From: a virus
Taxonomy: Duplodnaviria; Caudoviricetes
Reading direction: 5' to 3' (one strand)
Virus record (IMG/VR): IMGVR_UViG_3300034073_002120
Length of the DNA stretch: 64,000 nt
The position numbers and the translations under genes are program-made. The notes under the pieces were generated by a model that was not told the DNA's origin, did no database searches, and saw nothing but the letters and a program-made list of their open reading frames with translations. Of this stretch, positions 9,834 through 27,105 are shown piece after piece. Positions within the stretch are counted from its first letter, which is position 1. Each line of letters starts with the position of its first letter.

Positions 9834-9838
9834 ATAAA

Positions 9839-12586: not shown

Positions 12587-12624
12587 GTCTTTTATGTTTT
12601 AAAGGTTAATCTCTTATTACAAAG

Positions 12625-12656: not shown

Positions 12657-12672
12657 TTATTTACCATTTTTT

Positions 12673-12963: not shown

Positions 12964-12975
12964 ATCTTTTATATT

Positions 12976-13203
12976 TTATTTTAACCATAAATTGTAAACA
13001 TAATCATAACTTACCTCCATACTCTCAGCAAGTTTCTCAAACAATCGTTCTCTGATGATACTATCACCAACACCAATATATCGGTAAACATCACCACCGA
13101 TAATCAATTGATTTAATAGACCAGGAAAGGTTGGAGTTTCGTTAAGTTCTAATCCCAATTCATCAGTTGGGTAGTTTTCTAAATAAAATTCTTTAAGTTT
13201 CAT
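12976..13203 (-). CDS. Small hypothetical protein
   Basis: ORF track. It has the same taaaacataaaatATG leader. Confidence 0.65.
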   Translation of the reverse strand: MKLKEFYLENYPTDELGLELNETPTFPGLLNQLIIGGDVYRYIGVGDSIIRERLFEKLAESMEVSYDYVYNLWLK

Positions 13204-13231
13204 ATTTTATGTTTTAAAGGGTAGTTGTAAT

Positions 13232-13402
13232 TTATAAATTATTTACTTTTCTGATTCTTGCTATTAGTTTTTTCTCTCTTAGTGTAGCATTATAATATTG
13301 TTCAACTAATTCTAATTGTTCATTTGTCAATGGGTATTTAAATACTATAAATTTAACCCATGTTAAGAATATCTGAATGTTGTAGATGATGAATCGTTTC
13401 AT
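13232..13402 (-). CDS. 56-aa hypothetical protein below the ORF-track cut-off (MKRFIIYNIQIFLTWVKF...RKVNNL)
   Basis: Hand translation. It has the same taaaacataaaatATG leader as its neighbours and is the first gene after the promoter at 13442-13473. Confidence 0.6.
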   Translation of the reverse strand: MKRFIIYNIQIFLTWVKFIVFKYPLTNEQLELVEQYYNATLREKKLIARIRKVNNL

Positions 13403-13441
13403 ATTTTATGTTTTAATTGTTTATCTCTCAATCTTACATAG

Positions 13442-13473
13442 CTAAACTACACATTTTTTACCAATTTTCCAAA
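13442..13473 (-). promoter_or_regulatory. Second Bacteroidota-type promoter, likely early
   Basis: The minus strand reads TTTG-(20 nt)-TAGTTTAG, followed by ct(a/t)tgtaa as in the copy at 12625. Confidence 0.7.
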
Positions 13474-13532
13474 TATTTTATCACTTTTTTTTCAATTATT
13501 TTTGGCCATTGATAATCAACTAGTTATGGGCA

Positions 13533-13560
13533 TAAAAAAGAGGTAAAATTACCCCTTTTT
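13533..13560 (-). terminator. Terminator overlapping the GIY-YIG stop codon
   Basis: The minus strand reads AAAAAGGGGTA-ATTT-TACCTCTTTTTT. Confidence 0.6.
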
Positions 13561-14112
13561 CACAAAATTTCCCTTATCATCTCTCTTCATTACCCTATTA
13601 CTCAAAAAGGCCCTTCTTTCATCATACATCCGTTGACCGGCTTCCTTTCCGTTCCTATCTATGTACCATTCTAAGGAGAATCTACCCTTAGCCTTCTCTT
13701 TTTGTTTCAGTTTTGCCTCCTCTGAATGGGATTTGCCGAACATACCATTCTTATCACCCTTTGTAAGTTCTTTCATCTTAGATACGAATTCAGTATATTC
13801 ATCAGTATCTCTCCTACCATACCATATATCCCCACCTTCACCTTTATATATTGCGTTTAATCCTCCCTTTACTGAATTGTATGCAAGTATTAGTTCTTCT
13901 TCTACTTTTACGGATTCTTTTGGGTCTACCTCGCATATAATTTCCTTTTTAAAATTATCCCATCCGTATTTACGAACTGCTTTGTATAATGGAAAATCTA
14001 ATTTCTTATGATATGCTGCTCTATAATGACCATACATTCTATCATCGAAATCAAAAGTACGTCCAATATATACCTTTCCGTTGGGTGATGTTAATTTATA
14101 AATTATATCCAT
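13549..14112 (-). mobile_element. Free-standing GIY-YIG homing endonuclease with NUMOD3 motif
   Basis: N-terminal IIYKLTSPNGKVYIG and NUMOD3-like GMFGKSHSEEAKLKQKEKAKGR. It is flanked by terminators directly after the capsid gene. Confidence 0.85.
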
Positions 14113-14158
14113 AAAACTTTCTTTTTATATAAATATAGTTCTTTGGAGTAAACCGCAT

Positions 14159-14185
14159 AAAAAAAGGGAAACCGAAGTTTCCCTT
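14159..14185 (-). terminator. Terminator after the major capsid gene, cUUCGg tetraloop
   Basis: The minus strand reads AAGGGAAAC-TTCG-GTTTCCCTT-TTTTT. Confidence 0.9.
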
Positions 14186-14221
14186 TTCTATTATGGAATC
14201 GTTAGTTCGATTACATTAAGA

Positions 14222-15841
14222 TTAAACTGAAGCTAAATCTTTGATGTAAATCTTGCCGTAGAATTCTGGACGCACCATCTTCTTAGCGTAACGAGTCATA
14301 ACACCACGTCTTGGCGTGAAGTTAGTTGGGTCGTACACTAATGGAGTCATAATTAATGGAACGTATGGAGCATATACCGCACCAGTCTCTAAGAATGATG
14401 AACCTTTGAAACCTAACAATACTTCGTTAGATGTCATGTAAGGGTTCTTGTAAACTGTGTAACGAGATGCTAAAGAACCTACTTGAGAAACACCAGCTGC
14501 GAAAGATGTAGCATCTTTATCAGCATTAACTGTAAATCCTGGAATTGATTCTAAGATTGTAGCAACATCTGGAGATACAACGATGAAGTTTGCACCACCA
14601 CGTAATGTTAATTGGTGAATTTTGTTAGATACTTTGTTAATCTTAGTTCCTAAAGTTTGGAACCAAGTATTTTTTTGGTATGCCAATGAAGACGAACCTG
14701 CTGACCAAGTACCTGATGTAGAGTTGTACTCTTCACCGATAGTTGCTGACCAATAATCAGTTGTTAAAGCGTTTGCTTTTAACATATCTAAGATTTCTAA
14801 ATCGATTTCTAATGAAATGTATTCAGACAACATAGAAGTTAATTCAGCTTCAGCATCGATTGAGTGGTAAGCGTTTAAGTCTTGTGCCAACTCTGGTGTC
14901 CACACTGCTTTTAACTTACGAGTCTTAGCCACGATAGCCTCTGAACGTAATTCCAAATCAACTTCTGGAATAGCGATATCAGTTGCTGGTTCTGTTGGAG
15001 TAGCATCTTCGAAATCACCTCTTGTTGTAGAAGTTGGAGCCAAAGAATACTTAACTGTCAACGCAGTTTTAGTAGCTACAGTTGCAACTTTCGCGAAGAA
15101 AATTACGTTAGCACCAGAAACTTGTGAGAATTGTGGATAGAATGTATCTACATCAGCAAAACCAGATGCAGAGATGTGGAATGAACGAACTGCTTCATAA
15201 TCAGCTGCAGATGCAACGTTAGATTTTGCAATTGTAATCTTAGCAACTGCACCAGCTGCGATAGATGAAGATAATGCAGAATCATATCCAACTTCTGACC
15301 AAGATGCTGTTGCATATGTTTGGTTAGATGTAGAAACCGATACTGATTGGTCGTTGATTGTGTAAGAATATCTTCCTTCACCATAAAGACCGTTTACTGC
15401 TGCTTTAGTTCTACCGAAATCACCATCGAATGCAGAAGTTCCATTACCACCAAATAATGATTTACCATTAAATTTAGTATCACCTTGAACTGCTGTTCCG
15501 TATTTGAAATCTAGATAGAAGATAAGACCTGATGGTAAGTTCATTGGTTGAACTGAAACGAATTCTTTCGCTGCGATTTCACCAAAAATACGTCTTACCA
15601 ATGGTAATGCTACACCAGACCACTCTTCTGAACCTGCAGAAGTACCAGTTGCTGTTGCTTCATCCAATAATTGTTTAGCTTGGTTCTCTAATAGAACTGC
15701 TACTTGAGATTGCTCTCTTTCTTTTAAACCTTCTAAAAGACCAGTTTTTTCCCACTTATTCTTCAATTGACGTGTTTCAGCCAACATTACTGATTGTGGG
15801 TTCTTGCCTTCCATAAGTTTAGATAAATTAAAATTTGCCAT
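14222..15841 (-). CDS. Major capsid protein, T4 gp23-like
   Basis: KWEKTGLLEGL, VSVQPMNLPSGLIFYLDF, AKTRKLKAVWTPELAQDLNAYHSIDAEAEL and YAPYVPL...FTPRRGVMTRYA. SD AAGGAG. Confidence 0.97.
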   Translation of the reverse strand: MANFNLSKLMEGKNPQSVMLAETRQLKNKWEKTGLLEGLKEREQSQVAVLLENQAKQLLDEATATGTSAGSEEWSGVALPLVRRIFGEIAAKEFVSVQPMNLPSGLIFYLDFKYGTAVQGDTKFNGKSLFGGNGTSAFDGDFGRTKAAVNGLYGEGRYSYTINDQSVSVSTSNQTYATASWSEVGYDSALSSSIAAGAVAKITIAKSNVASAADYEAVRSFHISASGFADVDTFYPQFSQVSGANVIFFAKVATVATKTALTVKYSLAPTSTTRGDFEDATPTEPATDIAIPEVDLELRSEAIVAKTRKLKAVWTPELAQDLNAYHSIDAEAELTSMLSEYISLEIDLEILDMLKANALTTDYWSATIGEEYNSTSGTWSAGSSSLAYQKNTWFQTLGTKINKVSNKIHQLTLRGGANFIVVSPDVATILESIPGFTVNADKDATSFAAGVSQVGSLASRYTVYKNPYMTSNEVLLGFKGSSFLETGAVYAPYVPLIMTPLVYDPTNFTPRRGVMTRYAKKMVRPEFYGKIYIKDLASV

Positions 15842-15875
15842 TTTATTTTTCTCTCCTTAGAATTTTTTGTTTTGT

Positions 15876-16967
15876 TTATTTAATATTTGCTAACTTTTTA
15901 AATCTTTCAGCCATATCGTTTGATTCGTTGATAATTGCAGCCTTTGGTGCAGTTGAAGCAACTTTCTTAGATGCGAATGATTCAGTTATTTTGTTTGTTT
16001 TTACCTTCTTAGCAGTTCCACCGATTTTCATCGATTCAGCTAATGTTGCGAAAACTAATTTTACTTCTCTAACATTTTGTGTTCTGTCTAATGTTTCAAC
16101 AACTTTGTGTTTTTGTTCGTTTGTTAAATCATAAGAACGGAATAATTTGTTAGTGTAAAGTAACTTTGCGTTTAACAAGTTTACTTCGTTGATTGTAGAT
16201 TTCAAAGATTTGATTACTTTGTAAGCTTCTTCTAATTCTTGTTCCATTTCTGAAACTTTATCAGATTCTTCTTCTTCACCTTCTTCTACTGTCTCTTCAT
16301 CATCTCCGTATCCCATTTCACGTAAGATTTCTTCCAAGTCGATTTCGTCTTCTTCTGAAACTTCAGCTTCTGGTGCAACTTCTGCATCAACTGCAGGAGT
16401 TTCATCTTCTTCTGAAACTTCAGCATCAGCTGCTGGAGCTTCAACTTCATCTTCTTCTGAAACTTCGTCAGATTCAGCACCCAATTCATCTTCTAATTCT
16501 CTGATGATTGATTCTAAATCTAATTCGTCTTCATCTTCTTCTGCAATTGCACCCGTTGGGTCATCAATTACACCATCTTGGTTTTCATCTTCTTCACCTT
16601 CTGCAAGAGGCATATTTTCGTCCTCTTTACCTGGTTCAGCTGTTTCTTTTTCTGTGTCACCTAATTCAGTGTGAGCATCAGTTGCAATTCCTTGTGGTTC
16701 ATCACCATCAGTTCCACTACCATCTTGTCCTTCGCCTGCACCGATTTCTGATGAATCGTTTGCATCAACATCATCAGCACCATACTCTTCATTTACATCA
16801 GCTTCTTCCTCTTCACCTTCCATTTCTGCTTGAAGTTTCTTAGATAGAATTGATTGTAATCTCGGAGTAAAAGCTTCTTCTAATGCGATTTTAGCGTTAG
16901 CAATAGCAGTTTCACGTACGGCTTTAGCATCAGCAATTGCGTCTTTTAACAATTTTGAGTTTGCCAT
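15876..16967 (-). CDS. Prohead core/scaffold protein
   Basis: Highly acidic centre, coiled-coil termini and LNEVNLLNAKLLY motif, immediately upstream of MCP. Confidence 0.8.
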   Translation of the reverse strand: MANSKLLKDAIADAKAVRETAIANAKIALEEAFTPRLQSILSKKLQAEMEGEEEEADVNEEYGADDVDANDSSEIGAGEGQDGSGTDGDEPQGIATDAHTELGDTEKETAEPGKEDENMPLAEGEEDENQDGVIDDPTGAIAEEDEDELDLESIIRELEDELGAESDEVSEEDEVEAPAADAEVSEEDETPAVDAEVAPEAEVSEEDEIDLEEILREMGYGDDEETVEEGEEEESDKVSEMEQELEEAYKVIKSLKSTINEVNLLNAKLLYTNKLFRSYDLTNEQKHKVVETLDRTQNVREVKLVFATLAESMKIGGTAKKVKTNKITESFASKKVASTAPKAAIINESNDMAERFKKLANIK

Positions 16968-17037
16968 TTGTTTACTTTCCTTTACTTTTTTCTGAAAATA
17001 TTAAGGGAGATTTTCAATAGAATGTGTTAGGTTAGTT

Positions 17038-17110
17038 GTTCGGTCACCACTTATATAAAAGGGTATTCATTAACCAACATTTAATTTTAAATCCACAATA
17101 GAGGTGGATT
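17038..17110 (-). promoter_or_regulatory. Structured 5' leader of the scaffold/capsid operon (two hairpins)
   Basis: Hairpin AAUCCAC/GUGGAUU (17090-17110) and bulged hairpin GUUGGUU...GACC-G-AAC (17038-17078) in a 206-nt intergenic gap. Confidence 0.45.
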
Positions 17111-17173
17111 ATTTGAAAATAAATATATAAATGTTTATAGAAACATTAAATTTATATTACTTTTTTAAAAATT

Positions 17174-17476
17174 TTATTCAAAATTTTTATCTTTTTGGGG
17201 TTTTTGTTCGTCTTTACCCTTTTTCTTTCTTTTTTTAGTGAAAAAACGTATTGTTCTATCACCTTCTGCTATTTTTTGTAGAGCAACTCTTTTTTGTTCC
17301 TCTCTAACAGCTTTTTGTTTTTGTAACCTTCTTTTGGTTGTAGGTTTAACGTATTCTTTTCTTTCTCTTAATTCTAAAAGATGTCCAGATTCATTTACCT
17401 TCTTTTTGAATTTCTTTAAGGCCTTTGCAATGTCTCCATTACGAACCTCTACTGTAACTCTTGATAATCCGCTCAT
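17174..17476 (-). CDS. rpsU: Phage-encoded ribosomal protein bS21 with basic C-terminal extension
   Basis: V.VRNGDIAKALKKFKKKV...G.L.ELRERKEYVKPTTKRR is the bS21 signature. It sits inside the head module. Confidence 0.92.
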   Translation of the reverse strand: MSGLSRVTVEVRNGDIAKALKKFKKKVNESGHLLELRERKEYVKPTTKRRLQKQKAVREEQKRVALQKIAEGDRTIRFFTKKRKKKGKDEQKPQKDKNFE

Positions 17477-17534
17477 TAATTTAATTTAAATTGTTTTGTT
17501 GTAACTATTTGAGAATAAGTATGTCTTTTAAAAA

Positions 17535-18806
17535 TTATTTGCTTAAAAGGAACAATGCTTCTTCTGCTTCTTGTTGATTTTTAATTTTTGGGTCTTTATA
17601 CATATCAACTTTGTATCCTCTTAAAGCATTTGATAAAAATATCATATACTTAGGATGACCTAATTTCTCTTCTAACGCAGATAATGAATCATAAAACTTT
17701 TGTTCGTTTCCATTATTCATTTTTTCTGCAGTTTTATATTCATCTTTGTGATTATTGATATAAGATGCTTTAGAATCAGAATAACCATGCGCTGCTTCGT
17801 TTACTGATTCGAATAATCTAACTGAAAGAATAACATCATTACCGATTTTTAAGTTTCTTACTTTATTTCTTTCTAAATCGTATGATGGATTTATAGTTTT
17901 TGCTATAGCAATCACACCATTCTTAATAAAGTGTGGTTGAATACCTGAATAATTATCATCTCTAAACATAAATACATTTTCTGGATTATCCTTAGAAATT
18001 TTAATTAGTTTCATTAAACCTGTTTTACCGACATAACATCCACCTTCACATTTAGTTCCACCATAGGTTTTACCTTTTATAAATGATGTTTCATTTACTG
18101 ATTTTTCTTCTTTAATATATTTTACAGATGAATTTGAACCATCGGTAAAAAATACATTATCACCATCAATCATTTTTACTTTTCGTCTAAATGGTCCTTT
18201 TTTCCCCAATGCACCTTCCCAGTGTGGGTTGTCAACTTTAACCATTTGACCAACTTTGATTTCTTCGTTTACCGAATTACATCCACAATCAGTAGATTCT
18301 TTAATTGATTCATTTGTAGGTACACAATTGGGAACTTCTTTACCATCTTTCATTTTCATCCCAACTTGCTTGTATCCATCCCAACAAGGAGATGCTTCTT
18401 TAATACCCAAACGTTCTTTCATTTGGTCTTCGGAAATTTCACCAATTTTATAGTAACGAGATAGGATATGTCCCATATCTTCGTATAATCCATGTAATCT
18501 TTGGTCTAAGTTTTTTGCTTCAATTGCTACTTTATCAAATTGACTACCTAATTTCGCCAATTCACTCATATTTCTTTTCACAGTTTGTGCATCAAACCAA
18601 TCATCGGATTCGTTTACCGCTAATTCTCTAGCTGCTTCAGTAATTCCACCTAAAACTTCTGCGATTTCAGCAATATCAGATTTTCTATCCATCATTTCTT
18701 GATACTTGTTGTATGTAGAAACGATTTCTAAGAAATGTTTTTTTACTTCATTCGAAAATTTCTTTGGTTCTTCACCTTCTTTAACTATATTTGATAAACG
18801 TATCAT
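17535..18806 (-). CDS. Modular putative internal-head protein with repeated (E/K/N)SVNE junctions
   Basis: N-terminal MIRLSNIVKE, a CWDGYKQVGMK...VPNCVP module and three SVNE junctions. Confidence 0.6.
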   Translation of the reverse strand: MIRLSNIVKEGEEPKKFSNEVKKHFLEIVSTYNKYQEMMDRKSDIAEIAEVLGGITEAARELAVNESDDWFDAQTVKRNMSELAKLGSQFDKVAIEAKNLDQRLHGLYEDMGHILSRYYKIGEISEDQMKERLGIKEASPCWDGYKQVGMKMKDGKEVPNCVPTNESIKESTDCGCNSVNEEIKVGQMVKVDNPHWEGALGKKGPFRRKVKMIDGDNVFFTDGSNSSVKYIKEEKSVNETSFIKGKTYGGTKCEGGCYVGKTGLMKLIKISKDNPENVFMFRDDNYSGIQPHFIKNGVIAIAKTINPSYDLERNKVRNLKIGNDVILSVRLFESVNEAAHGYSDSKASYINNHKDEYKTAEKMNNGNEQKFYDSLSALEEKLGHPKYMIFLSNALRGYKVDMYKDPKIKNQQEAEEALFLLSK

Positions 18807-18824
18807 TCTCTCTCCTACTATTAT

Positions 18825-19784
18825 TTATTTTTGAAATGCTTTGATGATTCCTTGTGCAAATTTGTTTCCCGGTTTACCAACAATTGCAGTTGATATATCC
18901 ATTCTATTACTTAATGTCTTTGGACCTTTGATTTTAAGGTATGCTAATAATTTTCTATCATCTATGTTATTATCATCGATAAATTTCTTAACAGCTTGAG
19001 TTCTCAACCCAGTTAAGTTAGCAATTTCTTCTACTTCTGATTCATTCACCATTTTAGTTAATGAAATTCTACCTTCTTTGTTTAAAGCCTTCATATAAGG
19101 TTTATTATCAAATATAGATTGAATTGTGTCTGCCTCTTTATGGAATCCATTCATTCTTAATGTAAATGCAATACCATCTGCAGCTTGAACACCATCCCAA
19201 CCTGATGATTGTGATACGTTTCTTCCAAATTCATGTGCGTTATCATCACCATTCCAATATTCCGAACTATCTACACCATTGGTTCTTATATCTGCCATCT
19301 TTTCTTTATACTTAGGGTCATCCATTTTAGGATAATCCACTCTCTTAGCCCATTCAGGCTTTCCTTCAATCTTTGAAATCAATTCTCTCGCCTCATCATG
19401 AAAGTTTGCATCAGTTAAAGCCTCAACTGCTGCTTTTATCATTGTTTTCTTATATCCATCATTACCCAACTTTTGTGGAGTAATTCCAAATTCTTCTGCT
19501 TTCTTTTTAGCCTCTTTATTTACTTGAGGATTACCTGGTCTTTTCTTTGGTTGTGTTGCAGTTGGTTCTGATTTTGGTTCACCGGATGGTTTATTAAAGA
19601 TATTCACCTTTGGGGTTTCACTACCTTTAGAATTGGAATCTCCTTTATCTTTTATAGGATTATGAGTTCCTGCTTTGATTGCATTATCTCTACTATCTTT
19701 TGATTTGAATACAGATGTTTTACCACTTGCTTTGTTTGTAGCAGTAAATGTTTCTGCTTCTAAAAGTAAATTTTTTAATTTCAT
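18825..19784 (-). CDS. Modular putative internal-head protein
   Basis: N-terminal MKLKNLLLE. The first module is paralogous to a module in 21030..21689. Confidence 0.6.
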   Translation of the reverse strand: MKLKNLLLEAETFTATNKASGKTSVFKSKDSRDNAIKAGTHNPIKDKGDSNSKGSETPKVNIFNKPSGEPKSEPTATQPKKRPGNPQVNKEAKKKAEEFGITPQKLGNDGYKKTMIKAAVEALTDANFHDEARELISKIEGKPEWAKRVDYPKMDDPKYKEKMADIRTNGVDSSEYWNGDDNAHEFGRNVSQSSGWDGVQAADGIAFTLRMNGFHKEADTIQSIFDNKPYMKALNKEGRISLTKMVNESEVEEIANLTGLRTQAVKKFIDDNNIDDRKLLAYLKIKGPKTLSNRMDISTAIVGKPGNKFAQGIIKAFQK

Positions 19785-19802
19785 TTCGTTATTTCCTTAT
19801 TA

Positions 19803-20243
19803 TTAAAATCCAATTGATACTGTTTTACTATCAAACTCTATCCAACGTATTTTCATTGCAATTAAGTCTTTCAAATCAGATGTGTCCATTCTCCAATTAG
19901 GTTCTGACATTTGAATATCAACAATATTACCATGTATACCATCCCAAATTGTGATAATCTTACCACCAAAAAACTTTACAAAAGCATTTACTTGCTTTTG
20001 TTTAGTAGAATCTAATTCGTTAAATTTAATTTCAGAAGCTTCTTTAATTAAAGATTTACCTTCTGTCATTATAGTTTTATGAGTATAAAGGTCTAATTTA
20101 CCATCTTCCTTTATCTTCACATCGTAGTTAGTCTTACGAATATCGTTATGACCACCCTTATATGGTGTATCACCCACTTCTTTCTTAATACTACCTAACT
20201 CTATCTTATTATTCTTTAAATAATCTTGTATGTTAAATGCCAT
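19803..20243 (-). CDS. Hypothetical head-module protein
   Basis: ORF track. SD AAGGA and internal MTE/IKE sites. Confidence 0.6.
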   Translation of the reverse strand: MAFNIQDYLKNNKIELGSIKKEVGDTPYKGGHNDIRKTNYDVKIKEDGKLDLYTHKTIMTEGKSLIKEASEIKFNELDSTKQKQVNAFVKFFGGKIITIWDGIHGNIVDIQMSEPNWRMDTSDLKDLIAMKIRWIEFDSKTVSIGF

Positions 20244-20254
20244 AATTATTTCCT

Positions 20255-20848
20255 TTATGATAATTCAGTAATGATTTCTCTCATAAGGTCTTGTGCCTTA
20301 CAAAAATCACCACAAACTATTGCTTGTTCTTGTAATTGTTTATTTACGGATTCGTTCATCGGTGTCATAAATGCACCATGAGTAGATGGGTTTGATACGA
20401 AATCCCAACCAATTAGTTCGAAATCTTCACCTACTTTCACCTTACCCTCTCCCATAGGAGTTACTGAGCCCATACCACGAGAAGAAATACCTAATAGGAT
20501 TCCTGCTCTTAACAATTCTTTTAATATATTACCAGATGGAGTTGGTAAAATTTCTACTGTCCCGCATAAATCATTACCTTCCCACCAAATTTCTCTTATA
20601 TTGTGTGAAACGTTCTTTAAGTTGATTACTGATGAATCTGGGTGGTCTAATTCTCCTAATGCTCTTCTCTCTTTAATAAGAGTTTCATATTTTTTAGCTT
20701 CTCTTTGTAAGATTTCTAAAGGATATACTCTACCATTTTGATTTTCAGCAACAGCTCTTTGCAAAACACCTTTAACCAGTGTTCTACCTGATGCATCTTC
20801 GTTGATTCTACCTTCAAATAGGTTTGTTTCAATTAATAAATTTTTCAT
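20255..20848 (-). CDS. Prohead protease (T4 gp21/S77-like); start moved from TTG 20860 to ATG 20848
   Basis: ALGELDHP, VSHNI, GISSRGMGS and WDFVSNPSTHGA. ATG 20848 overlaps the upstream stop (TAATG). Confidence 0.93.
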   Translation of the reverse strand: MKNLLIETNLFEGRINEDASGRTLVKGVLQRAVAENQNGRVYPLEILQREAKKYETLIKERRALGELDHPDSSVINLKNVSHNIREIWWEGNDLCGTVEILPTPSGNILKELLRAGILLGISSRGMGSVTPMGEGKVKVGEDFELIGWDFVSNPSTHGAFMTPMNESVNKQLQEQAIVCGDFCKAQDLMREIITELS

Positions 20849-21024
20849 TATGCTCCCCAAACGTTTCTTTTCTTAAATAAATCGAAAAATATTGCAGAAA
20901 CTTCTTTGCGAATAATATCTCTAATAAGTTTTTCATCCTCACTAGTGATTTCTTCGTTTACAAATCCCCATTTTACTTTAAGGATTTCTTCGTCAATTAT
21001 TTCTAACAATCTTTTCTTAGTCAT
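20848..21024 (-). CDS. 58-aa protein translationally coupled to the prohead protease (missed by the ORF track)
   Basis: Hand translation gives MTKKRLLEIIDEEILKVKWGFVNEEITSEDEKLIRDIIRKEVSAIFFDLFKKRNVWGA. It fills the gap exactly, with a TAATG overlap. Confidence 0.75.
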   Translation of the reverse strand: MTKKRLLEIIDEEILKVKWGFVNEEITSEDEKLIRDIIRKEVSAIFFDLFKKRNVWGA

Positions 21025-21029
21025 TGTTG

Positions 21030-21689
21030 TTATTTTAATTTTAAACTGCGTTGTGCATTAGTTAAACCATCAATAATTGATTGTAATCCTTTTTTAACAC
21101 CATCAGTATCTCTATCTTTAACTCTTTTATCTAAAATTTTTGTATTTGCTTTTAGAAAGTTAATGATTGCGTTTTCGGTTGCACCCCAATTAATATCTTC
21201 TGCCTCATTTACTGATTCTTTTGTGAATATATTAACACCAGTTCCTTTTGATGTGGATGATTTCTTTTTAGGGGTATTCTCTGATGGAGTAAAAGTTCCT
21301 CGTTTAATAGCGGCATCTCTATGTGCTTTGTCTTTAAACATAACAACTTTACCGGTTTCCTTGCTTCTAGCACTATAAGTCATTAATTCATTTATAGATT
21401 CATCTGCTTTTTTACCAGCTCTTAAATCTGCTAAATCATCACCCTCAATATCACCATCACTATCTACATCCAATTCCTTTTGTCCACCTACCAATTCTTC
21501 GTTCTTTTCACCTTTACCATTCCAAGCAGAATCTATTTTATCAAAGAAAGCTTTCTTTTCTTCTTCGGACATATCTGGTATTGATTTACCTGCTTTATCT
21601 AATGCTTTTTGAAAGAATTGTTGGTATTCTGTTTCTTCTACCATCACTTCTTTTACAATTTCTTTTAATCTTGCTCTTGATATTTTCAT
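21030..21689 (-). CDS. Modular putative internal-head protein (ESINE/ESVNE junctions, EF-hand-like DVDSDGDIEGDD)
   Basis: MKISRARLKEIVKE N-terminus, ELDVDSDGDIEGDDL motif and two junctions. Confidence 0.6.
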   Translation of the reverse strand: MKISRARLKEIVKEVMVEETEYQQFFQKALDKAGKSIPDMSEEEKKAFFDKIDSAWNGKGEKNEELVGGQKELDVDSDGDIEGDDLADLRAGKKADESINELMTYSARSKETGKVVMFKDKAHRDAAIKRGTFTPSENTPKKKSSTSKGTGVNIFTKESVNEAEDINWGATENAIINFLKANTKILDKRVKDRDTDGVKKGLQSIIDGLTNAQRSLKLK

Positions 21690-22390
21690 TATTTTTCTAT
21701 CTCCTGTATTGTTTTTGCAATATTGATTAATCTCTCTTTTATTTTATAAATATGACCGTGAGTTCTTTTCCAAAAACTATCAGATGATAATTCGTTCATC
21801 GTTTTAATTTGATTATACCAACGAAAAAACTTTTCAACTTCACTTAATTGATATTTTAATTCTCTCAACCCAACTGCTAACTTTTTATTAGCATGCATTG
21901 TTTCATCATTTTTTAATTCTAACCAACGATTTACAGGTCTTTTTGATTTACCTTCGTTTACCGATTCTTTGATTTTTCTTTTTTGTTGAATTATTTGTTG
22001 GATTTGTGAAAATATAGATTGTATATCTTTATCTAATTGTTTCTCATCGGCACTCATCGGTGATTCAATATCTACATTAGAATAAAGTTTTTTCTTTTTA
22101 GCAATTAATACATCTACTTTTTTAATTAAATCGTTTCGTACTTTATCTAAATCTTTTACAATTTCAGATGCTGTTGCTTCATTTACCTCATCAATATCTT
22201 TAACCTTCGTATATCCAGTCACTTCTATATTTGAATCTGCCTTTTCTTTATCTTGTTTTCTCTTGTCTGAAAATGCAAAAGGAGTCTGATACCCATCGAC
22301 ATTACCTGTCGCATTAGATTCATCTAACTCCTCTTCGATTTCTTTAATAAGTTCGTCTATGTACGATTTAAGATTTTCTTTCTTTAACAT
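21689..22390 (-). CDS. Putative head-module protein with a cassette between DEVNE and ESVNE
   Basis: ELDESNATGNVDGYQTPFAF motif, and a C-terminal helical domain ending YKIKERLINIAKTIQEI. Confidence 0.6.
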   Translation of the reverse strand: MLKKENLKSYIDELIKEIEEELDESNATGNVDGYQTPFAFSDKRKQDKEKADSNIEVTGYTKVKDIDEVNEATASEIVKDLDKVRNDLIKKVDVLIAKKKKLYSNVDIESPMSADEKQLDKDIQSIFSQIQQIIQQKRKIKESVNEGKSKRPVNRWLELKNDETMHANKKLAVGLRELKYQLSEVEKFFRWYNQIKTMNELSSDSFWKRTHGHIYKIKERLINIAKTIQEIEK

Positions 22391-23240
22391 TTTTTATTTC
22401 CTTTATCAATTCATATGACATCATCAAAGCAGAAACTTGTTCATCAGTAACTTTCTTACCAACCTTTTGCTGTTTCATTACGTTGATAGTTTCTTTTAAT
22501 TTAATCTTTGTGATTTTATCATTAACTTCTGAATAAAGTTTATGTAATTCCGTTACAACAACCTTCAATTTAGAATCATAATATTCACCAAATTTAGAAG
22601 TATTGTTTACGTTGTTAATATACTCTCTTAAAATATCCTTTTGGTCATCATTTAAGTTTGTATATTTCTTGTTAAATGTTTCAACAAGAATCTTATATGT
22701 TAATAATCTTAAATCTTTCTCTTGTTTTCTATAATCTTCTAACAACTTATCTTCTTTTTGTTTCAAAGATGGTGTTGTACTTGATATATGTTCGATTAAC
22801 GTTAATTTAGCATCAAATACGTCTTTAACATTAGTTACATCTTGTACTTTTGCTTCAAATATCTTATGAACAGATGCTAATACTTTGTAGTTAGATACAG
22901 GTGATGATAAGAATGAATCTAATTCAAAATTCTCTTTTATTGCTTTAACAAGATTATACTTTTCTCTTGCTAATTTTGTTTCATCCAATTTTGTACGAGT
23001 TTCTATAATAGCATCAATATACTTTTCTGCTTTAGATTCAGAATTATATTTTTCGTTTACCAATAAATTGAATAAACGTAATTCTTTAGCCATTTCAGTT
23101 TTTCCACCAAAAAATTCTTGCACGATTTTTTTAGCTTTTTCTTCAGGTGCGTTGTTTAATATTTCCAACGTTATTTGACGTGTTAATAACTCAAATAGGA
23201 ATCCTGTATTTTTGAATTTCGAATGTTTTATTTTTCTCAT
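22368..23240 (-). CDS. Conserved helical protein downstream of the portal
   Basis: MRKIKHSKFKNTGFLFELL N-terminus and SD AAGGA. Confidence 0.7.
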   Translation of the reverse strand: MRKIKHSKFKNTGFLFELLTRQITLEILNNAPEEKAKKIVQEFFGGKTEMAKELRLFNLLVNEKYNSESKAEKYIDAIIETRTKLDETKLAREKYNLVKAIKENFELDSFLSSPVSNYKVLASVHKIFEAKVQDVTNVKDVFDAKLTLIEHISSTTPSLKQKEDKLLEDYRKQEKDLRLLTYKILVETFNKKYTNLNDDQKDILREYINNVNNTSKFGEYYDSKLKVVVTELHKLYSEVNDKITKIKLKETINVMKQQKVGKKVTDEQVSALMMSYELIKEIKNVKERKS

Positions 23241-23300
23241 TTGTTAATCCTTATTTTGATAGACTCAAAATTTCTGTATATAAATATTAAAAATTATAAG

Positions 23301-25037
23301 TTAAATGAATTTTTCCGTATCATCGATAATATTAGTCTCATCTAACATATCTTTTGTTTCGTGTAGATATTTACGTTTTGATGAAATCCCATTGATAAAA
23401 CTTTTAGCTTTATGTTCTGATGTTCGACTACGTTTTCCTGTTCTTTCATTATCACCTAATGGGTCTCTTCCATAAGGATGTTTATCTTTACCATATGTAT
23501 TACCTTCTCGTGGTCTTCCCACTTTAGCACTAAGTTCAGTTTTTAAATTTTCTAAACTTTCTTCAACATCGGTTTGTTGTGGTGGGTTTGCAGGGTCATT
23601 ACCATCATTTTCAATTGAATTATAACGGAATGTATCTTTTAAATCTTCTACAATCTTACCACGTTGTTCTGTTTGTTCCGTTTCAGACATTTTGAAAATA
23701 TTATCGTAAATCCAATCTTTTGACAACATTTTTAAAGATTGCATATCAGTAGCCAAACGAATCTTTTCAGACCATAAGTTTACTTTTTCTTGCTCATAAA
23801 TTGTTGAAGGATTTACTAATTGAATTTCAAAATTAGCCATTTCTGAATCCTGTATTCCATTACCATATAAATGTATTACACCGATTCTTGATAATTCTGA
23901 TATAATTGTTCTTTGTATTCTTTCGATTGTTCTAGCGAAACGAACGTCTTCTGCTGCAAGGGTTGCTTTACCATTTACATTTTCTTCATATCCCAAATAT
24001 GCTTTTGGAATTTTTAATGCAGCAAATAATTTACCCTTTAAGTATTCAATATCTTCGGTTGCCGTGTACTCTAAACCACTTAGGTTTTCGATGTTAGTTC
24101 CACTATCACCACCTCTTACCGGTAGATAAAAATCTTCCGTTAAGTTTTGCATATTATATTTTAAGTTATAATCACCAGTATCCTTATTTACAAAAGGAAC
24201 TTTTTTCATCTTACTGATGATTTTTTGCATGTAGTTGTCAACTTCGGTAGGATTGATATTACCTATATCGATTTTAAACACTCTTTTTTCTGGTGCTCTC
24301 ATAATACGATGGATTAACATCGCATCTTCCATTAAACTCAATTGTTTCCATAATCTTCTACCATTCTCAACCATAGATTTACCATAAGGTAACCAGTTAG
24401 TATCTGATAATAGACGGAAGTGAGCCATTTCAAAATTATCATAATCTACTTTACCAATAGCATCATCCATTACTCTGAATTTAACCATATGTGGATTGGT
24501 TGGGTCATGTCCCTCAATTCGTTCGGTATTATATTGTGAATATGGAGTAACATTTACAATACCCTTACCCTCTGCTATTTCTAATCCCAAAAAGAAATCA
24601 CCATACTTACACATATTGCGAACCCATGGCCAAAGAGTAAATTCGATATTTAAAATATCATAGTATAAGTTTTCTAATAATTCTTGAACACGTGGATTAT
24701 CAGAACGAATAATCAACATTTCACCGAATTCATTTTTTAATGTAGATTCATCAGCGTAAATATCTAATGCAGATGCAATAATTGGGTCTTGGTCCATTGC
24801 ATCATAATCTCTAAATACTTCTCTACGAACTTGTTGATACGCCATTGATTGTGCACCACCAGCTTGTTCGTAAAAAGATTTTTGTAGTTTTGTGTATCTA
24901 TCTCTTAATGATGATAGGTTAGTTTCTTGTCTTTCATCAAAATCAAAAACTTTTCTTTTACCATCGGGCGTAACAGTAACGATAGCCTTTTGGGAAAAGA
25001 GTTTTCTTAACCTACCAAAAAATGAAGTATCTGCCAT
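23301..25037 (-). CDS. Portal (vertex) protein, T4 gp20-like
   Basis: MEDAMLIHRIMRAPEKRVFKIDIGN, EDFYLPVRGGDSGTNIENL.G and LFAALKIPKAYL. Confidence 0.95.
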   Translation of the reverse strand: MADTSFFGRLRKLFSQKAIVTVTPDGKRKVFDFDERQETNLSSLRDRYTKLQKSFYEQAGGAQSMAYQQVRREVFRDYDAMDQDPIIASALDIYADESTLKNEFGEMLIIRSDNPRVQELLENLYYDILNIEFTLWPWVRNMCKYGDFFLGLEIAEGKGIVNVTPYSQYNTERIEGHDPTNPHMVKFRVMDDAIGKVDYDNFEMAHFRLLSDTNWLPYGKSMVENGRRLWKQLSLMEDAMLIHRIMRAPEKRVFKIDIGNINPTEVDNYMQKIISKMKKVPFVNKDTGDYNLKYNMQNLTEDFYLPVRGGDSGTNIENLSGLEYTATEDIEYLKGKLFAALKIPKAYLGYEENVNGKATLAAEDVRFARTIERIQRTIISELSRIGVIHLYGNGIQDSEMANFEIQLVNPSTIYEQEKVNLWSEKIRLATDMQSLKMLSKDWIYDNIFKMSETEQTEQRGKIVEDLKDTFRYNSIENDGNDPANPPQQTDVEESLENLKTELSAKVGRPREGNTYGKDKHPYGRDPLGDNERTGKRSRTSEHKAKSFINGISSKRKYLHETKDMLDETNIIDDTEKFI

Positions 25038-25048
25038 ATTTTATTATT

Positions 25049-25471
25049 TTACCATTTTCTGCAAGACCAATATCTAGCTTTTGTTCTTGGACCTGGTTGG
25101 TCACAATTATGTCTTGCTCTAAAAGATTTTCTTCTTTCAGGATTATTTTTCTTAATGTTCATTCCCGGTTGACCGAAATTTACTTTAACTACTTTTCCTG
25201 TCTTTGGGTTTTTAACATAAACTTTAAACTTCTTAACATCACCTTGCATTGGTTTACCCAATTTCACTTCTCTACCTTGATATTCCGCTTCGTAAACACA
25301 ATTACAATTTGCTTCTTGTAATTCGGTTGTGTAAGATTTTAGAAAATTTAAAAAATCTTCTTCATCTTCATCTTCCACATCTAATTCATCGTAATCCAAA
25401 AAATTGTGTTCTGGTTGGTCAAATGGATAATCTTCCACTTCCTCTTTGATTATGTTTTTTAACTTTATCAT
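25049..25471 (-). CDS. Small basic phage protein with RRKSFRARHNC...ARYWSCRKW domain and acidic N-terminal propeptide
   Basis: The motif is common in large myovirus head modules. N-terminal MIKLKNIIKE. Confidence 0.65.
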   Translation of the reverse strand: MIKLKNIIKEEVEDYPFDQPEHNFLDYDELDVEDEDEEDFLNFLKSYTTELQEANCNCVYEAEYQGREVKLGKPMQGDVKKFKVYVKNPKTGKVVKVNFGQPGMNIKKNNPERRKSFRARHNCDQPGPRTKARYWSCRKW

Positions 25472-25518
25472 GATATATTTCTCCTATACACTATAAATAT
25501 ATACATTTTTTTATTTGA

Positions 25519-27105
25519 TTATTTTATTAACCACGATAAATCTTCTGTTCCACTACCAACTCTCATTTGCCATGGATTTTCATCAAATGAACTATTACCA
25601 CCAAACCCACCAATATCGGTTACACTTTGATTTATACCACCCAAAGCCTGTTTAGTTAAATCTATACCTTCTTGTCTTAATCTTAATGCAGTATCTCTAA
25701 CCCATAAACCAATTGAAAGAGACATTACCAAGTCATCATTATATCCTTTCATTGCTTCAGCACGATTACCATTCCATATAAATGTAAATAACTCATCTAT
25801 CAACCTTGTAGAACGGATTGTAAAGGATTTCTCTCTTAGGTAATCATCTAACTTAGAAATAATTAATGGACGGGTTTTAGAGGTAGTAGAGAACCCAGCA
25901 ACCATACCTCTTTCTTCTGCTCGGAACTTATTTGTCATTTGATGAGCAACATCTACATATTTTAAATCCTTACTCATATAAAATAAGTTTCCATATCCTC
26001 TATCAATTACTTGTTGGATAACCGCCCAACCAATATTTGCGTTCTCCACAACTAATAATGCGTTGTTGTAATCAGTTGATAATGAAACTAAGAAGTTTCC
26101 AAAATCTTTTGTATCTAATTTACCTTTATACTCAGCAACTTGCGTTGAATTCACTACATCAAATACTTGTGCAGTAGAATAATCGGCTCCATCGCCACGA
26201 GCAACGTCGGCAACTACCATATATGATTGATTGTAATCTGGATATTCCCATTTCCAAAGATTTCCATCGAACCCGGTCTTCTCTAAAGGTTCTTGACAAT
26301 ACGTTTCTCTATAAAATTGTAATAATGCAGGGTCAATGACAGTATCACCGGAACTTACAAAGTCACAATCACACTCTTGTGCAGCACCTTTAGGTCCTAA
26401 TAACCTTTCTTGTTCATCTCTCCATGCTTGTCCACGCTCAGGGTGAACTGACCAGTGTAAACGAATTGTATTGAAACCATTTCTACCTTCTTCTGCACCT
26501 ACCCACGTTCTATGAAAGAAATTACCCACACCATTAGGTGTAGAAAGGATAATTGCATTACCACCCGTTGATAAAGTAGATTGTGCAGAAATCCAAATCT
26601 CTTCAATACTATCGATGAACGCAGCCTCGTCAAATACTAAGAGTGATAAGGCTTCAGAACGACCCGCATCTCCTGCTGCAGAAGTTGCTTTTGCCTGTGA
26701 ACCATTTGAATATCGTAATGAAAGTTTATTATCTTCAACTGTTGTTTGTTTTAACCAACTTGGTAAGTATTGGTTCATTACCCTAATCTTTGTGATAAGG
26801 TTTTTAGCAACTTCTTGTTTAGTTGCAATTACCAATACGTTAAAATCTTGATTAAACAACATCTTCCATAATGAGAACCCCGCAACTAAGGTTGATATAC
26901 CTGTCTGACGGGATTTAAGAACGATGTTGTAACGATTATCCTTAAAATCAGTAAGAGTATCCTCTTGGAAAGGATATAAGTGAAATGGAATCTTACCTCG
27001 TACCGGATGTTGAATCATACAATACTTACGCATGAAATAAATCGGGTCACCAGCACATTTCTGATACTCAATCTTTATAATATCTTTTAATGATGCACCT
27101 GCCAT
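25519..27105 (-). CDS. terL: Terminase large subunit, T4 gp17-like
   Basis: Walker A LKSRQTGIS, Walker B LLVFDEAAF, coupling motif STPNG, nuclease VADVARGDGADYS and DDLVMS. No intein. Confidence 0.96.
   Translation of the reverse strand: MAGASLKDIIKIEYQKCAGDPIYFMRKYCMIQHPVRGKIPFHLYPFQEDTLTDFKDNRYNIVLKSRQTGISTLVAGFSLWKMLFNQDFNVLVIATKQEVAKNLITKIRVMNQYLPSWLKQTTVEDNKLSLRYSNGSQAKATSAAGDAGRSEALSLLVFDEAAFIDSIEEIWISAQSTLSTGGNAIILSTPNGVGNFFHRTWVGAEEGRNGFNTIRLHWSVHPERGQAWRDEQERLLGPKGAAQECDCDFVSSGDTVIDPALLQFYRETYCQEPLEKTGFDGNLWKWEYPDYNQSYMVVADVARGDGADYSTAQVFDVVNSTQVAEYKGKLDTKDFGNFLVSLSTDYNNALLVVENANIGWAVIQQVIDRGYGNLFYMSKDLKYVDVAHQMTNKFRAEERGMVAGFSTTSKTRPLIISKLDDYLREKSFTIRSTRLIDELFTFIWNGNRAEAMKGYNDDLVMSLSIGLWVRDTALRLRQEGIDLTKQALGGINQSVTDIGGFGGNSSFDENPWQMRVGSGTEDLSWLIK

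Follow-up and report, generated by a model that had tools for sequence, protein, structure and literature searches.

Why should a T4-like phage whose host is probably a member of the Bacteroidota place Shine-Dalgarno (SD) sites on one class of its genes, and is the ribosomal protein bS21 that it encodes connected with their use? The question is raised by the window analysed here, a stretch of 64,000 nt from a freshwater T4-like jumbo phage in which SD sites are found on genes for abundant particle proteins and not on those for enzymes, portal, terminase or bS21. bS21 is the ribosomal protein most frequently encoded by phages, and published ideas on what it does for them end at replacement of host bS21, which would somehow favour phage mRNAs.

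In order to compare gene classes, SD spacing was counted from the 3' end of the motif to the ATG, with 5–11 nt accepted, and all starts examined lie on the - strand. AGGA or GGAG is present at this distance in 15 of 21 virion genes and in none of the 26 glycan, enzyme and other genes (Fisher p = 7e-8). At random coding-strand positions the motif has a frequency of 5.7%, against 71% in the virion set (binomial p = 1e-14), and the glycan block is at this background rather than depleted (p = 0.22). The SD-led starts carry AGGA, AGGAG or GAGGAG, complementary to the CCUCC core of the 16S 3' end, with duplex energies of -4.0 to -8.4 kcal/mol. The original prediction had proposed a comparison of anti-SD pairing energy by temporal class; for virion genes the mean was -4.9 kcal/mol and for glycan and other genes -0.1 kcal/mol (Mann-Whitney p = 5e-7). 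It had also named 16 starts as SD-led, and all of them have the motif 5–11 nt before the ATG, which is the higher coordinate of each gene below.

3661–3664 (- strand): AGGA, 11 nt before the ATG of a gene of >1215 aa (2–3649) that runs off the window
6560–6563 (- strand): AGGA, 7 nt before the ATG of a 914-aa tail-region gene (3808–6552)
9291–9296 (- strand): GAGGAG, 11 nt before the ATG of a gp15-like gene (8164–9279), an orthologue of which has a faint T4-gp15 Pfam match
9842–9845 (- strand): AGGA, 8 nt before the ATG of gene 9279–9833; SD in 21 of 23 orthologues from bS21-positive loci
10999–11003 (- strand): AGGAG, 8 nt before the ATG of a gp13-like neck gene (9839–10990; an orthologue matches PF26809 Phage_T4_gp13); kept in relatives
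11470–11473 (- strand): AGGA, 8 nt before the ATG of a DUF5856 gene (11090–11461) of uncertain structural role; kept in relative L319, missing in L321, L323 and L324
15853–15857 (- strand): AGGAG, 11 nt before the ATG of the major capsid protein (MCP) gene (14222–15841)
16978–16981 (- strand): AGGA, 10 nt before the ATG of the 363-aa scaffold-position gene (15876–16967); AAGGAAGG or AAGGAAAG in close relatives
18812–18816 (- strand): AGGAG, 5 nt before the ATG of a 423-aa head-module gene (17535–18806); compared in relatives, as are the next six
19794–19797 (- strand): AGGA, 9 nt before the ATG of gene 18825–19784
20251–20254 (- strand): AGGA, 7 nt before the ATG of gene 19803–20243
21701–21705 (- strand): AGGAG, 11 nt before the ATG of gene 21030–21689
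22399–22402 (- strand): AGGA, 8 nt before the ATG of gene 21689–22390
23248–23251 (- strand): AGGA, 7 nt before the ATG of gene 22368–23240
25481–25485 (- strand): AGGAG, 9 nt before the ATG of gene 25049–25471, with ATATTTATA ahead of the SD
61291–61295 (- strand): AGGAG, 7 nt before the ATG of a 1710-aa gene (56151–61283), with ATATTTATA ahead of the SD

The last of these encodes a tail fibre with a C-terminal Peptidase_S74 domain and is SD-led in spite of its position outside the main virion block. The genes and blocks below have no SD on the starts of their longest open reading frames.

11501–14112 (- strand): variable island with five small genes, all SD-less, one of which (13549–14112) encodes a GIY-YIG homing endonuclease
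17174–17476 (- strand): bS21 gene, 100 aa (PF01165, phrog_21469); leader SD-less, A/T-rich and conserved in close relatives
20255–20860 (- strand): prohead protease (phrog_207), the longest frame running from a TTG (20860) without SD
23301–25037 (- strand): portal gene (phrog_213), SD-less in all close relatives
25519–27105 (- strand): terL (phrog_2); SD in 0 of 14 orthologues from bS21-positive loci
27107–56151 (- strand): block of 26 glycan genes with A-rich leaders and Pfam matches to sugar-nucleotide, radical-SAM and glycosyltransferase enzymes

The absence of SDs from bS21, portal, terL, four early-island genes and the glycan-cluster starts inspected had been noted too, and the motif scan agreed: no motif was found before bS21 (17476), portal (25037) or terL (27105), before the island starts at 12244, 12586, 12963, 13203 and 14112, or before any of the 26 starts between 27107 and 56151. 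Three small tail-region genes (6681–7352, 7356–7721 and 7721–8167) are likewise SD-less. A search for in-frame alternative SD-led starts within 40 codons of the SD-less genes returned only that of the prohead protease, where an ATG (20848) four codons downstream of the TTG is SD-led with -6.7 kcal/mol; the protease of close relatives is SD-led too.

The gene-by-gene SD and no-SD states of the window recur in five close relatives (L319, L320, L321, L323 and L324) while the flanking bases have diverged, and this persistence of the pattern indicates selection on the motifs. All four close relatives that cover the MCP gene (L319, L321, L323 and L324) have its SD, and in the close relatives portal, terL and bS21 are without one, as they are in the window. 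SD motifs are also absent from the collinear glycan island of G001, and other genes take the place of the variable island in L321, L323 and L324. The SD-led, many-copy set comprises the capsid, the scaffold-position gene, the protease, head-module genes, the gp13- and gp15-like neck genes, and tail and fibre proteins, whereas the low-copy or catalytic products, namely portal, terL, about 26 glycan enzymes, the homing endonuclease and bS21, have SD-less, A-rich leaders. On the evidence of sequence conservation, selection maintains SDs in the leaders of many-copy virion parts, where the SD would act as a translational gain control that follows protein abundance.

The partition had been expected to follow temporal class, and here the prediction failed. 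A T4-type late promoter is a single -10-like element with the consensus TATAAATA upstream of late genes, and this consensus is under-represented in the window (4 versus 10.7). A promoter-like variant of it, TATTTATA, was observed 16 times where 8.5 were expected.

25492–25499 (- strand): promoter-like element TATTTATA / ATATTTATA, one example
5' ends at 61310, 52944, 50088, 33594, 32714, 23286, 14135, 11487, 11028, 6661 and 3689: other elements of the same kind

ATTTATA lies within 70 nt upstream of 14 of 54 genes, against 3.9% expected (p = 1.5e-8), and the enriched (A)TATTTATA variant stands 10–62 nt upstream of those 14 starts. The motif is also found ahead of late genes in the Flavobacterium phage immuto. 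Seven of the 14 genes are SD-led and seven are SD-less; since the same element fronts both kinds, SD use tracks protein abundance and not temporal class.

The assignment of the host to the Bacteroidota is a probable one. Leaders without an SD are rich in A at positions -3 to -5 and -12, a feature that they share with immuto and that has been reported for F. johnsoniae. All of the nearest bS21 homologues come from metagenomes or look phage-like, and the sole bacterial-genome match considered as a pointer to the host turned out to be a mis-binned phage contig. Two relatives, Mel-JY01, for which a cyanobacterium (Microcystis) is recorded as host, and G003, have flat leaders that are not A-rich and SDs across all gene classes.

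The predicted bS21 gene at 17174–17476 is genuine and lies inside the head module. The protein scores 55.7 bits against PF01165 (cut-off 27; E 3.9e-15), with residues 8–59 covering model positions 1–53 of 55, and matches bS21 chains of solved ribosomes in the PDB (E 1e-6). In the F. johnsoniae ribosome Tyr54 of bS21 stacks on A1534 of 16S rRNA with a contribution from Ile55, both holding the anti-SD, and Tyr54 is described as conserved in Bacteroidia only (PMC7797042). A Bacteroidia-type bS21 is defined by Tyr54, the van der Waals contact of Ile55 and a C-terminal part that is less basic than its counterparts from other phyla. The phage protein departs from this anti-SD-occluding signature at each point. 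Alignments with PDB bS21 chains and with 38 phage homologues place Arg58-Glu59 at the positions of Tyr54-Ile55; Arg58, 13 residues past the conserved Lys-Pro in a gap-free alignment, corresponds to Tyr54 of the Tyr-bearing reference and has no aromatic residue nearby. The C-terminal tail is long and basic (43 residues, net charge +8). The phage protein would in effect be a natural Y54R/I55E variant of F. johnsoniae bS21. RNA contigs from four metatranscriptome studies span MCP, the scaffold-position gene and bS21, and join bS21 to its downstream gene.

The family comparison covered 113 unique loci that include the protease-to-MCP interval, 51 of them bS21-positive and 62 bS21-negative. The median fraction of SD-led genes is 0.44 in the former and 0.09 in the latter (Mann-Whitney p = 9e-17), and the MCP gene has an SD in 40 of 51 and 13 of 62 loci, respectively. 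In the window and about 90 related loci bS21 lies within the terL-portal-protease-MCP region. The complete bS21-less genomes, three from two lineages, are at background: SDs are on 4% of immuto genes, G012 has 6.2% versus 4.9%, and in the immuto-like G013 the head-module locus (L151) has 0 of 21. The bS21-bearing genomes exceed background, with 42% in G003, 23% in Mel-JY01, and 11% overall and 30% on virion genes in G004. SD use in this T4-like family is confined to phages that carry bS21. One deep split, between a 44-locus bS21-less clade and a 69-locus clade, carries most of the association, which is phylogenetically clustered; bS21 changes state only about five times on the tree, and a test of independent pairs is powerless. 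Several bS21-positive lineages are SD-poor (LR756508 with 4 of 56 genes; those of L012/L019/L020/L023, L015 and L054 with few or no SDs), and bS21 is therefore not sufficient for SD use. Loss of Tyr54 cannot be the entire mechanism either, because phages whose bS21 keeps this residue (L056, L062, L069, L076 and L081) are SD-rich. Across the family residue 54 does not predict SD richness, and neither charge nor length of the bS21 tail correlates with SD use. The SD-less state predicted for bS21 itself holds only in the subclade of the window and fails in the SD-richest clade, where the bS21 gene has a strong rpsU-like GAGGT or GGAGGT SD of its own.

Chen et al. 2022 (ISME Commun 2:31, PMC9723584) described bS21-encoding myophages of freshwater Bacteroidetes that are likewise large, T4-like and low in GC, with bS21 among terL, portal, protease and MCP. 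Their bS21 transcripts co-occur with structural-gene transcripts, and those authors proposed that phage bS21 takes the place of host bS21 and favours late phage mRNAs. Their bS21 genes lie on the other strand from the structural genes and encode an aromatic residue at position 54, read as continued anti-SD blocking, whereas here bS21 is on the MCP strand (in the window and every locus of the first set) and has Arg at this position; SD leaders were outside their analysis. Watson et al. 2020 (eLife 9:e60482, PMC7550191) asked whether S21 carriage goes with particular phage ribosome-binding sites and, from a comparison of genome-wide consensus sites of phages and hosts, saw no clear relationship; the signal described here appears once genes are separated into classes, a division that their survey did not make.

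The nearest experimental system is that of the specialised ribosomes of F. johnsoniae (Jha 2021, PMC7797042; McNutt 2023, PMC9976891), in which, as proposed here, one small protein sets anti-SD availability. Initiation moves towards SD-led mRNAs when Tyr54 or the C-terminal region is lost (PMC7797042; PMC9976891): with a strong-SD template, protein output is about 3-fold higher for Y54A ribosomes and about 5-fold higher for deltaC ribosomes, and with an SD-less template deltaC ribosomes make 2-fold less (PMC9976891). In that system the host autoregulates one gene, rpsU, by means of an exceptionally strong SD (below -13 kcal/mol), unlike the roughly 16 virion genes with moderate SDs and the virus-supplied variant bS21, known from its sequence, described here. 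In the work of McNutt et al. mutant bS21 benefited strong SDs only, with no gain for a weak-SD mRNA (PMC9976891), and the length of the phage SDs, 4–6 nt, therefore counts against a role of bS21 in reading them.

The explanation that we tentatively favour, while placing it somewhat short of an even chance, combines abundance-tracking SDs with a phage bS21 that makes SD-favouring ribosomes in a Bacteroidota host. Ribosomes of Bacteroidota hide the anti-SD within a bS21/bS18/bS6 pocket and for this reason ignore SD sites. Phage bS21, which would be made together with the capsid genes and lacks the Tyr54-Ile55 contact while having a basic tail, might then replace host bS21 on the 30S subunit, free the 16S 3' tail and yield ribosomes that favour SD-led virion mRNAs; its own mRNA needs no SD and could therefore be translated by unmodified host ribosomes. 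It is possible, though we would not call it probable, that phage bS21 is in this sense a ribosome-conversion factor that reopens the anti-SD and provides a private, SD-based high-gain channel used solely by abundant virion mRNAs. Carriage of bS21 would then be a precondition for the evolution of SD-led genes, and the SD-rich phages would for this reason be a subset of the bS21-positive ones. The bS21-driven switch of the original prediction is thus supported in part, by the family-wide link, Arg-Glu at Tyr54-Ile55 and the published Y54A effect, and weakened by the few events on the tree, the SD-poor bS21 phages, the SD-rich Tyr54 phages, a T4-like cyanophage and a host that is itself inferred.

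That cyanophage, P-HM1 (NC_015280), shares the T4-like head and neck gene set and has a partition like that of the window: its sheath, tube, protease, scaffold and MCP genes are SD-led, and portal, terL and most enzyme genes are not. It differs in having no bS21, a cyanobacterial host and leaders without an A-rich tract at -10 to -14. We know of no description of a Bacteroidia-like, bS21-dependent burial of the anti-SD in cyanobacteria. Its similar partition favours the view that SDs are an ordinary expression-level tuner, placed on high-copy virion proteins and on nothing else and read by host ribosomes unaided, as in T4-like cyanophages, with bS21 as a passenger that may complete ribosomes after host shut-off or choose mRNAs through its diverged N-terminal helix. 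The link across the family would then reflect different host groups in different clades, in keeping with the few independent events and the SD-poor lineages with bS21. Mel-JY01 and G003 are as expected of phages with an SD-reading host, and a basic residue 54 is also the E. coli state (Lys), Tyr54 being the Bacteroidia exception. We nevertheless consider this view somewhat unlikely. Every complete bS21-less genome of the family is at background, including G012 inside the window's own 69-locus clade. The SD-less leaders of the window share their Bacteroidota-like, A-rich signature with vB_FspM_immuto (MW353177), which among cultured relatives from Bacteroidota hosts is the nearest (terL 54%, MCP 53%, head module collinear); immuto differs in lacking bS21 throughout its 160 kb and has an SD on 0 of 11 virion homologues. 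Two unrelated, bS21-less Bacteroidota phages, 11b (3 of 65) and B40-8 (5 of 46), show no SD enrichment, and the SD-richness of the clade that keeps Tyr54, a Bacteroidia signature, is hard to understand if SDs were useless there and bS21 irrelevant.

The SD-led mRNAs could instead be served by a host pool of bS21-free 30S subunits, normally used in rpsU autoregulation and perhaps expanding late as host bS21 synthesis collapses, with phage bS21 acting elsewhere or modulating the pool. F. johnsoniae ribosomes lacking bS21 do have a free anti-SD and prefer SD-led mRNA (PMC9976891), and the rpsU-like SD of bS21 in the SD-richest clade suggests a tie to that circuit. This appears quite unlikely, since bS21-less relatives on the same kind of host would gain equally, yet have no SDs, and extra bS21 made late would shrink the pool unless the phage protein leaves the anti-SD unoccluded. 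The motif by itself would also suit a phage RNA-binding protein or endoribonuclease in place of the ribosome; T4 RegB cleaves at GGAG. The distance of 5–11 nt from the ATG is canonical for an SD, however, the variants AAGGA, AGGAG, GAGGA and GGAG at a fixed position are those predicted by pairing with CCUCC, and no RegB-like gene was found in the window by phrog and Pfam annotation, making such a site very improbable.

We found no publication that links an SD partition to phage bS21. The proposal that combines the two has three testable points, a cis signal in the form of SDs on particular virion genes, a trans factor in bS21 without Tyr54-Ile55, and SD use only together with bS21 across the family. 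Depletion strains and reporters have been published for F. johnsoniae, whose ribosome structure is also solved, and the cultured relatives Mel-JY01, with bS21, and immuto, without it, offer a natural contrast. If true, the proposal would supply a first mechanism of action for any ribosomal protein encoded by a virus, along with an instance of virus-made specialised ribosomes; should the part assigned to bS21 fail, the conserved partition would still show SD tuning of stoichiometry in phages of SD-poor hosts.

All sizeable open reading frames of the window lie on the minus strand (GC content about 30%). Genes were identified with PHROGs and Pfam, and the resulting layout is as follows.

Principal features of the window
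2 to 10990, minus strand: neck and tail genes (gp13-like and gp15-like labels confirmed on orthologues)
11501 to 14112, minus strand: small genes of a variable island, a GIY-YIG homing endonuclease among them
14222-15841, minus strand: major capsid protein (MCP) of the T4-like head module (PHROGs/Pfam)
17174-17476, minus strand: bS21, 100 aa (PF01165, 55.7 bits)
20255-20860, minus strand: prohead protease of the head module (PHROGs/Pfam)
23301-25037, minus strand: portal of the head module (PHROGs/Pfam)
25519-27105, minus strand: terL of the head module (PHROGs/Pfam)
27107 to 56151, minus strand: enzyme block of 26 genes (epimerases, RmlC, radical-SAM enzymes, glycosyltransferases)
56151-61283, minus strand: tail fibre with a Peptidase_S74 chaperone domain (PHROGs/Pfam)

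Judged by terL, Microcystis phage Mel-JY01 (PP395634; 55%) and Flavobacterium phage vB_FspM_immuto (MW353177, hereafter immuto; 54%) are the nearest named relatives. Near-identical DNA occurs in metagenomes of 13 studies of freshwater, aquatic and subsurface sites. The gene at 27825-32684, separated from terL downstream of it by one 219-aa gene (27107-27766), encodes a 1619-aa product that has a DUF5661 domain and, at its N-terminus, a cytidylyltransferase-like domain; it is kept near terL in the 109-kb relative G001, and has homologues in the complete genome G004, Mel-JY01 and LR756508. The segment from MCP to the DUF5856/gp13 genes (11501-14112 in the window, 13369-16257 in the related head-module locus L321 and 13244-16808 in L323) is a gene-replacement hot spot, in which the window and L319 carry the GIY-YIG homing endonuclease and small ORFs, while L321, L323 and L324 carry a GT2 glycosyltransferase and a metallophosphatase in their place.

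The original prediction held that Shine-Dalgarno (SD) motifs precede most structural genes and are missing from bS21, portal, terL and other genes. On re-scoring of the window starts, every start listed as SD-led carried AGGA or AGGAG upstream of the ATG at a distance of 5-11 nt, and all of the genes called SD-less were so. With gene classes set by function and position, independently of the leader, the motif was found at 15 of 21 virion genes and at none of the 26 enzyme-block genes (Fisher p = 7e-8), against a background of 5.7% of random coding-strand positions (binomial p = 1e-14), and anti-SD duplex energies of these two classes in the window lie about 5 kcal/mol apart. The fibre gene, 30 kb from the main virion block, likewise has AGGAG. 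No SD-less gene has a nearby in-frame SD-led start except the protease, whose longest ORF opens at TTG with an SD-led ATG four codons downstream.

Much closer relatives than those of the viral-contig scans came from the bS21 search, and in their head modules, which derive from other samples and had their genes called independently, the SD state matches that of the window gene by gene. SDs precede the pre-portal gene, those lying between portal and protease, the protease with the three genes that follow, the scaffold-position gene, MCP, gp13, a 184-aa gene and gp15. They are missing from terL, portal, bS21, the enzymes and the two small genes that come after gp15. The purine core of the SD is fixed in position across these relatives while its exact form and its flanks vary, and the collinear glycan island of G001 contains no SD motifs. 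The SD partition is real, conserved and selected.

Intergenic regions share a layout of a T-run hairpin, then (A)TATTTATA, then 10-60 nt leading to the ATG. Of 54 genes, 14 have ATTTATA in the 70 nt upstream of the start (expected 3.9%; p = 1.5e-8). Seven of these are SD-led and seven SD-less, and among the latter are the homing endonuclease and the 1619-aa gene from the end of the enzyme block nearest terL. In immuto the same element stands ahead of terL, portal and other late genes. The Bacteroidota sigma-A pattern TTG-N17-21-TAnnTTTG showed no enrichment in the window (5 observed, 5.8 expected). By analogy with the late promoters of T4, both gene sets would fall under one promoter class. 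Since the element is common to SD-led and SD-less genes, the split is not temporal, and the proposed framing by temporal class does not stand; the gene sets are instead set apart by the amount of product needed, the SD marking product abundance and not timing, with which the remark that SD-less portal and terL fit low-copy stoichiometry is consistent.

In three SD-less genes (52934-52944, 12245-12260 and 8168-8180, minus strand) an ATTTATA-type element abuts the start codon, with 10-12 nt, or less, between its 5' end and the ATG, and judged from this spacing these genes may have mRNAs with little or no leader. A perfect 7-bp hairpin (AATCCAC, a 7-nt loop, GTGGATT) lies at 17090-17110, minus strand, in the 206-nt gap that follows bS21, and its 5' arm and loop read CCACCTC, similar to the 16S anti-SD. 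The hairpin closely follows, on the downstream side, the promoter-like element TATATTTAT at 17119-17130 and so would be part of a long leader 5' of the scaffold-position and MCP genes, where it could act as a terminator, an attenuator or a decoy pairing with SD sequences.

In order to compare bS21 and SD use across the family, 235 related loci were gathered with MCP as anchor, bS21 was sought by HMM and tblastn, and SDs were scored at longest-ORF starts, which under-counts them where the real start is further downstream, as in G001. Counts refer to the 113 unique loci spanning the protease-to-MCP interval. The 51 bS21-positive loci have a median of 44% SD-led genes and an SD on MCP in 40 cases, compared with 9%, approximately background, and 13 cases for the 62 bS21-negative loci (Mann-Whitney p = 9e-17). 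Complete genomes without bS21 agree, with 4% in immuto and 6.2% in the 297-kb G012 (background 4.9%), as does the immuto-like, bS21-less G013, scored at its head-module locus L151 only (0 of 21); the unrelated Bacteroidota phages 11b and B40-8, also without bS21, are at background. Among genomes with bS21, SDs reach 42% in G003, 23% in Mel-JY01 and 11% overall, or 30% on virion homologues, in G004. In neither G001 nor Mel-JY01 did the SD contrasts between gene classes reach significance.

Most of the association on the MCP tree comes from one deep split between the immuto clade (44 loci, wholly bS21-less and SD-free) and its sister clade (69 loci, mostly bS21-positive). Because bS21 changes state only five times, independent contrasts have no power, and an independent-pairs test on MCP trees, with 3-5 pairs, is underpowered. 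Within the 69-locus clade, lineages without bS21 in the head module, G012 among them, have an SD share of about 0.17 as against 0.44. Absence of bS21 from the head module does not mean absence from the genome, the G004 gene lying about 100 kb away, and fragmentary contigs without a bS21 match (17-30% complete) are not evidence of absence. The presence of bS21 is not sufficient for SD use, since LR756508 carries it in the same position with SDs at only 4 of 56 genes, and the L012/L019/L020/L023, L015 and L054 lineages are likewise bS21-positive and SD-poor. The family pattern is that SD-rich implies bS21, and the converse is false. In the complete 253-kb G004 (the L007 contig), bS21 lies at 211157-211315, about 100 kb from the head module, and adjoins a second copy of a head-module-like gene (a homologue, at 210115, of the window gene at 17535-18806), which suggests that the bS21 cassette has moved.

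In the Flavobacterium johnsoniae ribosome, Tyr54 of bS21 stacks on A1534 where the 16S tail bends toward bS18/bS6, Ile55 adds van der Waals contacts, and the C-terminus of Bacteroidetes bS21 is described as unusually non-basic (PMC7797042). Counted without gaps from the conserved Lys-Pro, these two positions are occupied by Arg58-Glu59 in the phage protein, which thus amounts to a natural Y54R/I55E variant; its 43-residue tail has a net charge of +8. From a strong-SD template, the protein yield of Y54A ribosomes is raised about 3-fold in vitro and 1.7-fold in vivo, and removal of residues 43-64 gives about 5-fold more from a strong SD and 2-fold less from an SD-less template (McNutt et al., PMC9976891). 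The proposal that phage bS21 frees the anti-SD gains from this match with the published Y54A shift, but in its simple version it meets three counterpoints. Phages that keep Tyr54 are also SD-rich, and neither residue 54 nor the length or charge of the bS21 tail predicts SD richness. A weak-SD mRNA gained nothing from the mutant ribosomes (PMC9976891), and the phage SDs span only 4-6 nt. E. coli, too, has a basic residue (Lys) at position 54, Tyr54 being described as conserved in Bacteroidia only (PMC7797042). No close cellular homologue of this bS21 was found, nor a close cultured one by tblastn against GenBank phages even at E = 5. The closest homologues are all metagenomic, on phage-sized contigs, and PDB bS21 chains of different phyla score alike, so bS21 similarity was rejected as a host signal.

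The SD-less leader predicted for bS21 is nearly invariant in the subclade of the window, but in the SD-richest clade (L027, L040, L050, L047, L059, L080 and others) a strong GAGGT or CGGAGGTTAC site stands near the bS21 start, resembling the extended SD through which host rpsU is autoregulated in Flavobacteriales. The window leader (17477-17500, minus strand), CAATTTAAATTAAATTA before the ATG, is identical in L321, L323 and L324 at about 9977-10000. Other leaders of these relatives have diverged while this one is unchanged, a pattern suggestive of a conserved element for regulation or ribosome loading. MCP, bS21 and the scaffold-position gene are covered by RNA contigs (strains 90-97% identical) from four metatranscriptome studies of freshwater, and single contigs bridge bS21 and its downstream gene. 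As contig depth cannot rank genes, uncovered parts are uninformative and no transcript starts are readable, these contigs show only that RNA of bS21 and RNA of the capsid occur together, a co-occurrence that Chen et al. 2022 (PMC9723584) also describe in their phages.

Those authors described related phages and the idea of host bS21 replacement; their phages have bS21 on the opposite strand and an aromatic residue at position 54, and leaders were left unexamined. McNutt et al. (PMC9976891) speculate on exchange of phage bS21 on the ribosome, and Watson et al. (PMC7550191) set the consensus ribosome-binding sites of S21 phages against those of their hosts and saw no clear relationship. Full-text searching found no paper linking phage bS21 to SD-led structural genes.

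The bS21 mechanism requires a host whose ribosomes cannot read SDs. A Bacteroidota host is favored, indirectly, by the cultured relative immuto, which infects Flavobacterium, by the bS21-less family members without any SDs, and by the SD-less leaders of the window, which are rich in A at positions -3 to -5 and -12 (71% vs 39%), resemble those of immuto and G004, and match two (-3, -12) of the four positions reported for F. johnsoniae (-3, -6, -12, -13); leaders of Mel-JY01, G003 and the T4-like cyanophage P-HM1 (NC_015280) are flat. Against such a host, Mel-JY01 is recorded on Microcystis. Both Mel-JY01 and G003, although bS21-positive, differ from the window, G004 and immuto in having flat leaders that are not A-rich and SDs in all gene classes (23% and 42%, respectively), and they may infect a different kind of host. 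The one match in a bacterial genome, an 83% match of a sugar epimerase in a 'Pelagibacterales' MAG, was rejected as host evidence, the contig being a mis-binned fragment of a related phage: the 23-kb contig VHCC01000006.1 of this 'Candidatus Pelagibacterales' MAG (L136/L137) is collinear gene for gene with the window glycan island (from 51896 down to 27825), with protein identities of 45-83%.

If the SDs tune expression in the ordinary way and bS21 is a passenger, such a partition would also result. P-HM1, which has no bS21, carries SDs before its sheath, tube, protease, scaffold and MCP genes but leaves portal, terL, the neck genes and most enzymes SD-less, so that SDs confined to abundant virion genes can arise wherever host ribosomes read SDs. 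We regard this explanation as rather unlikely and rank it behind a bS21 mechanism, which itself rests on few independent evolutionary events and a presumed host. Supported by the family-wide pattern and the published mutant, the view that phage bS21 turns ribosomes toward SD-led virion mRNAs is plausible and specific, and we hold it tentatively.
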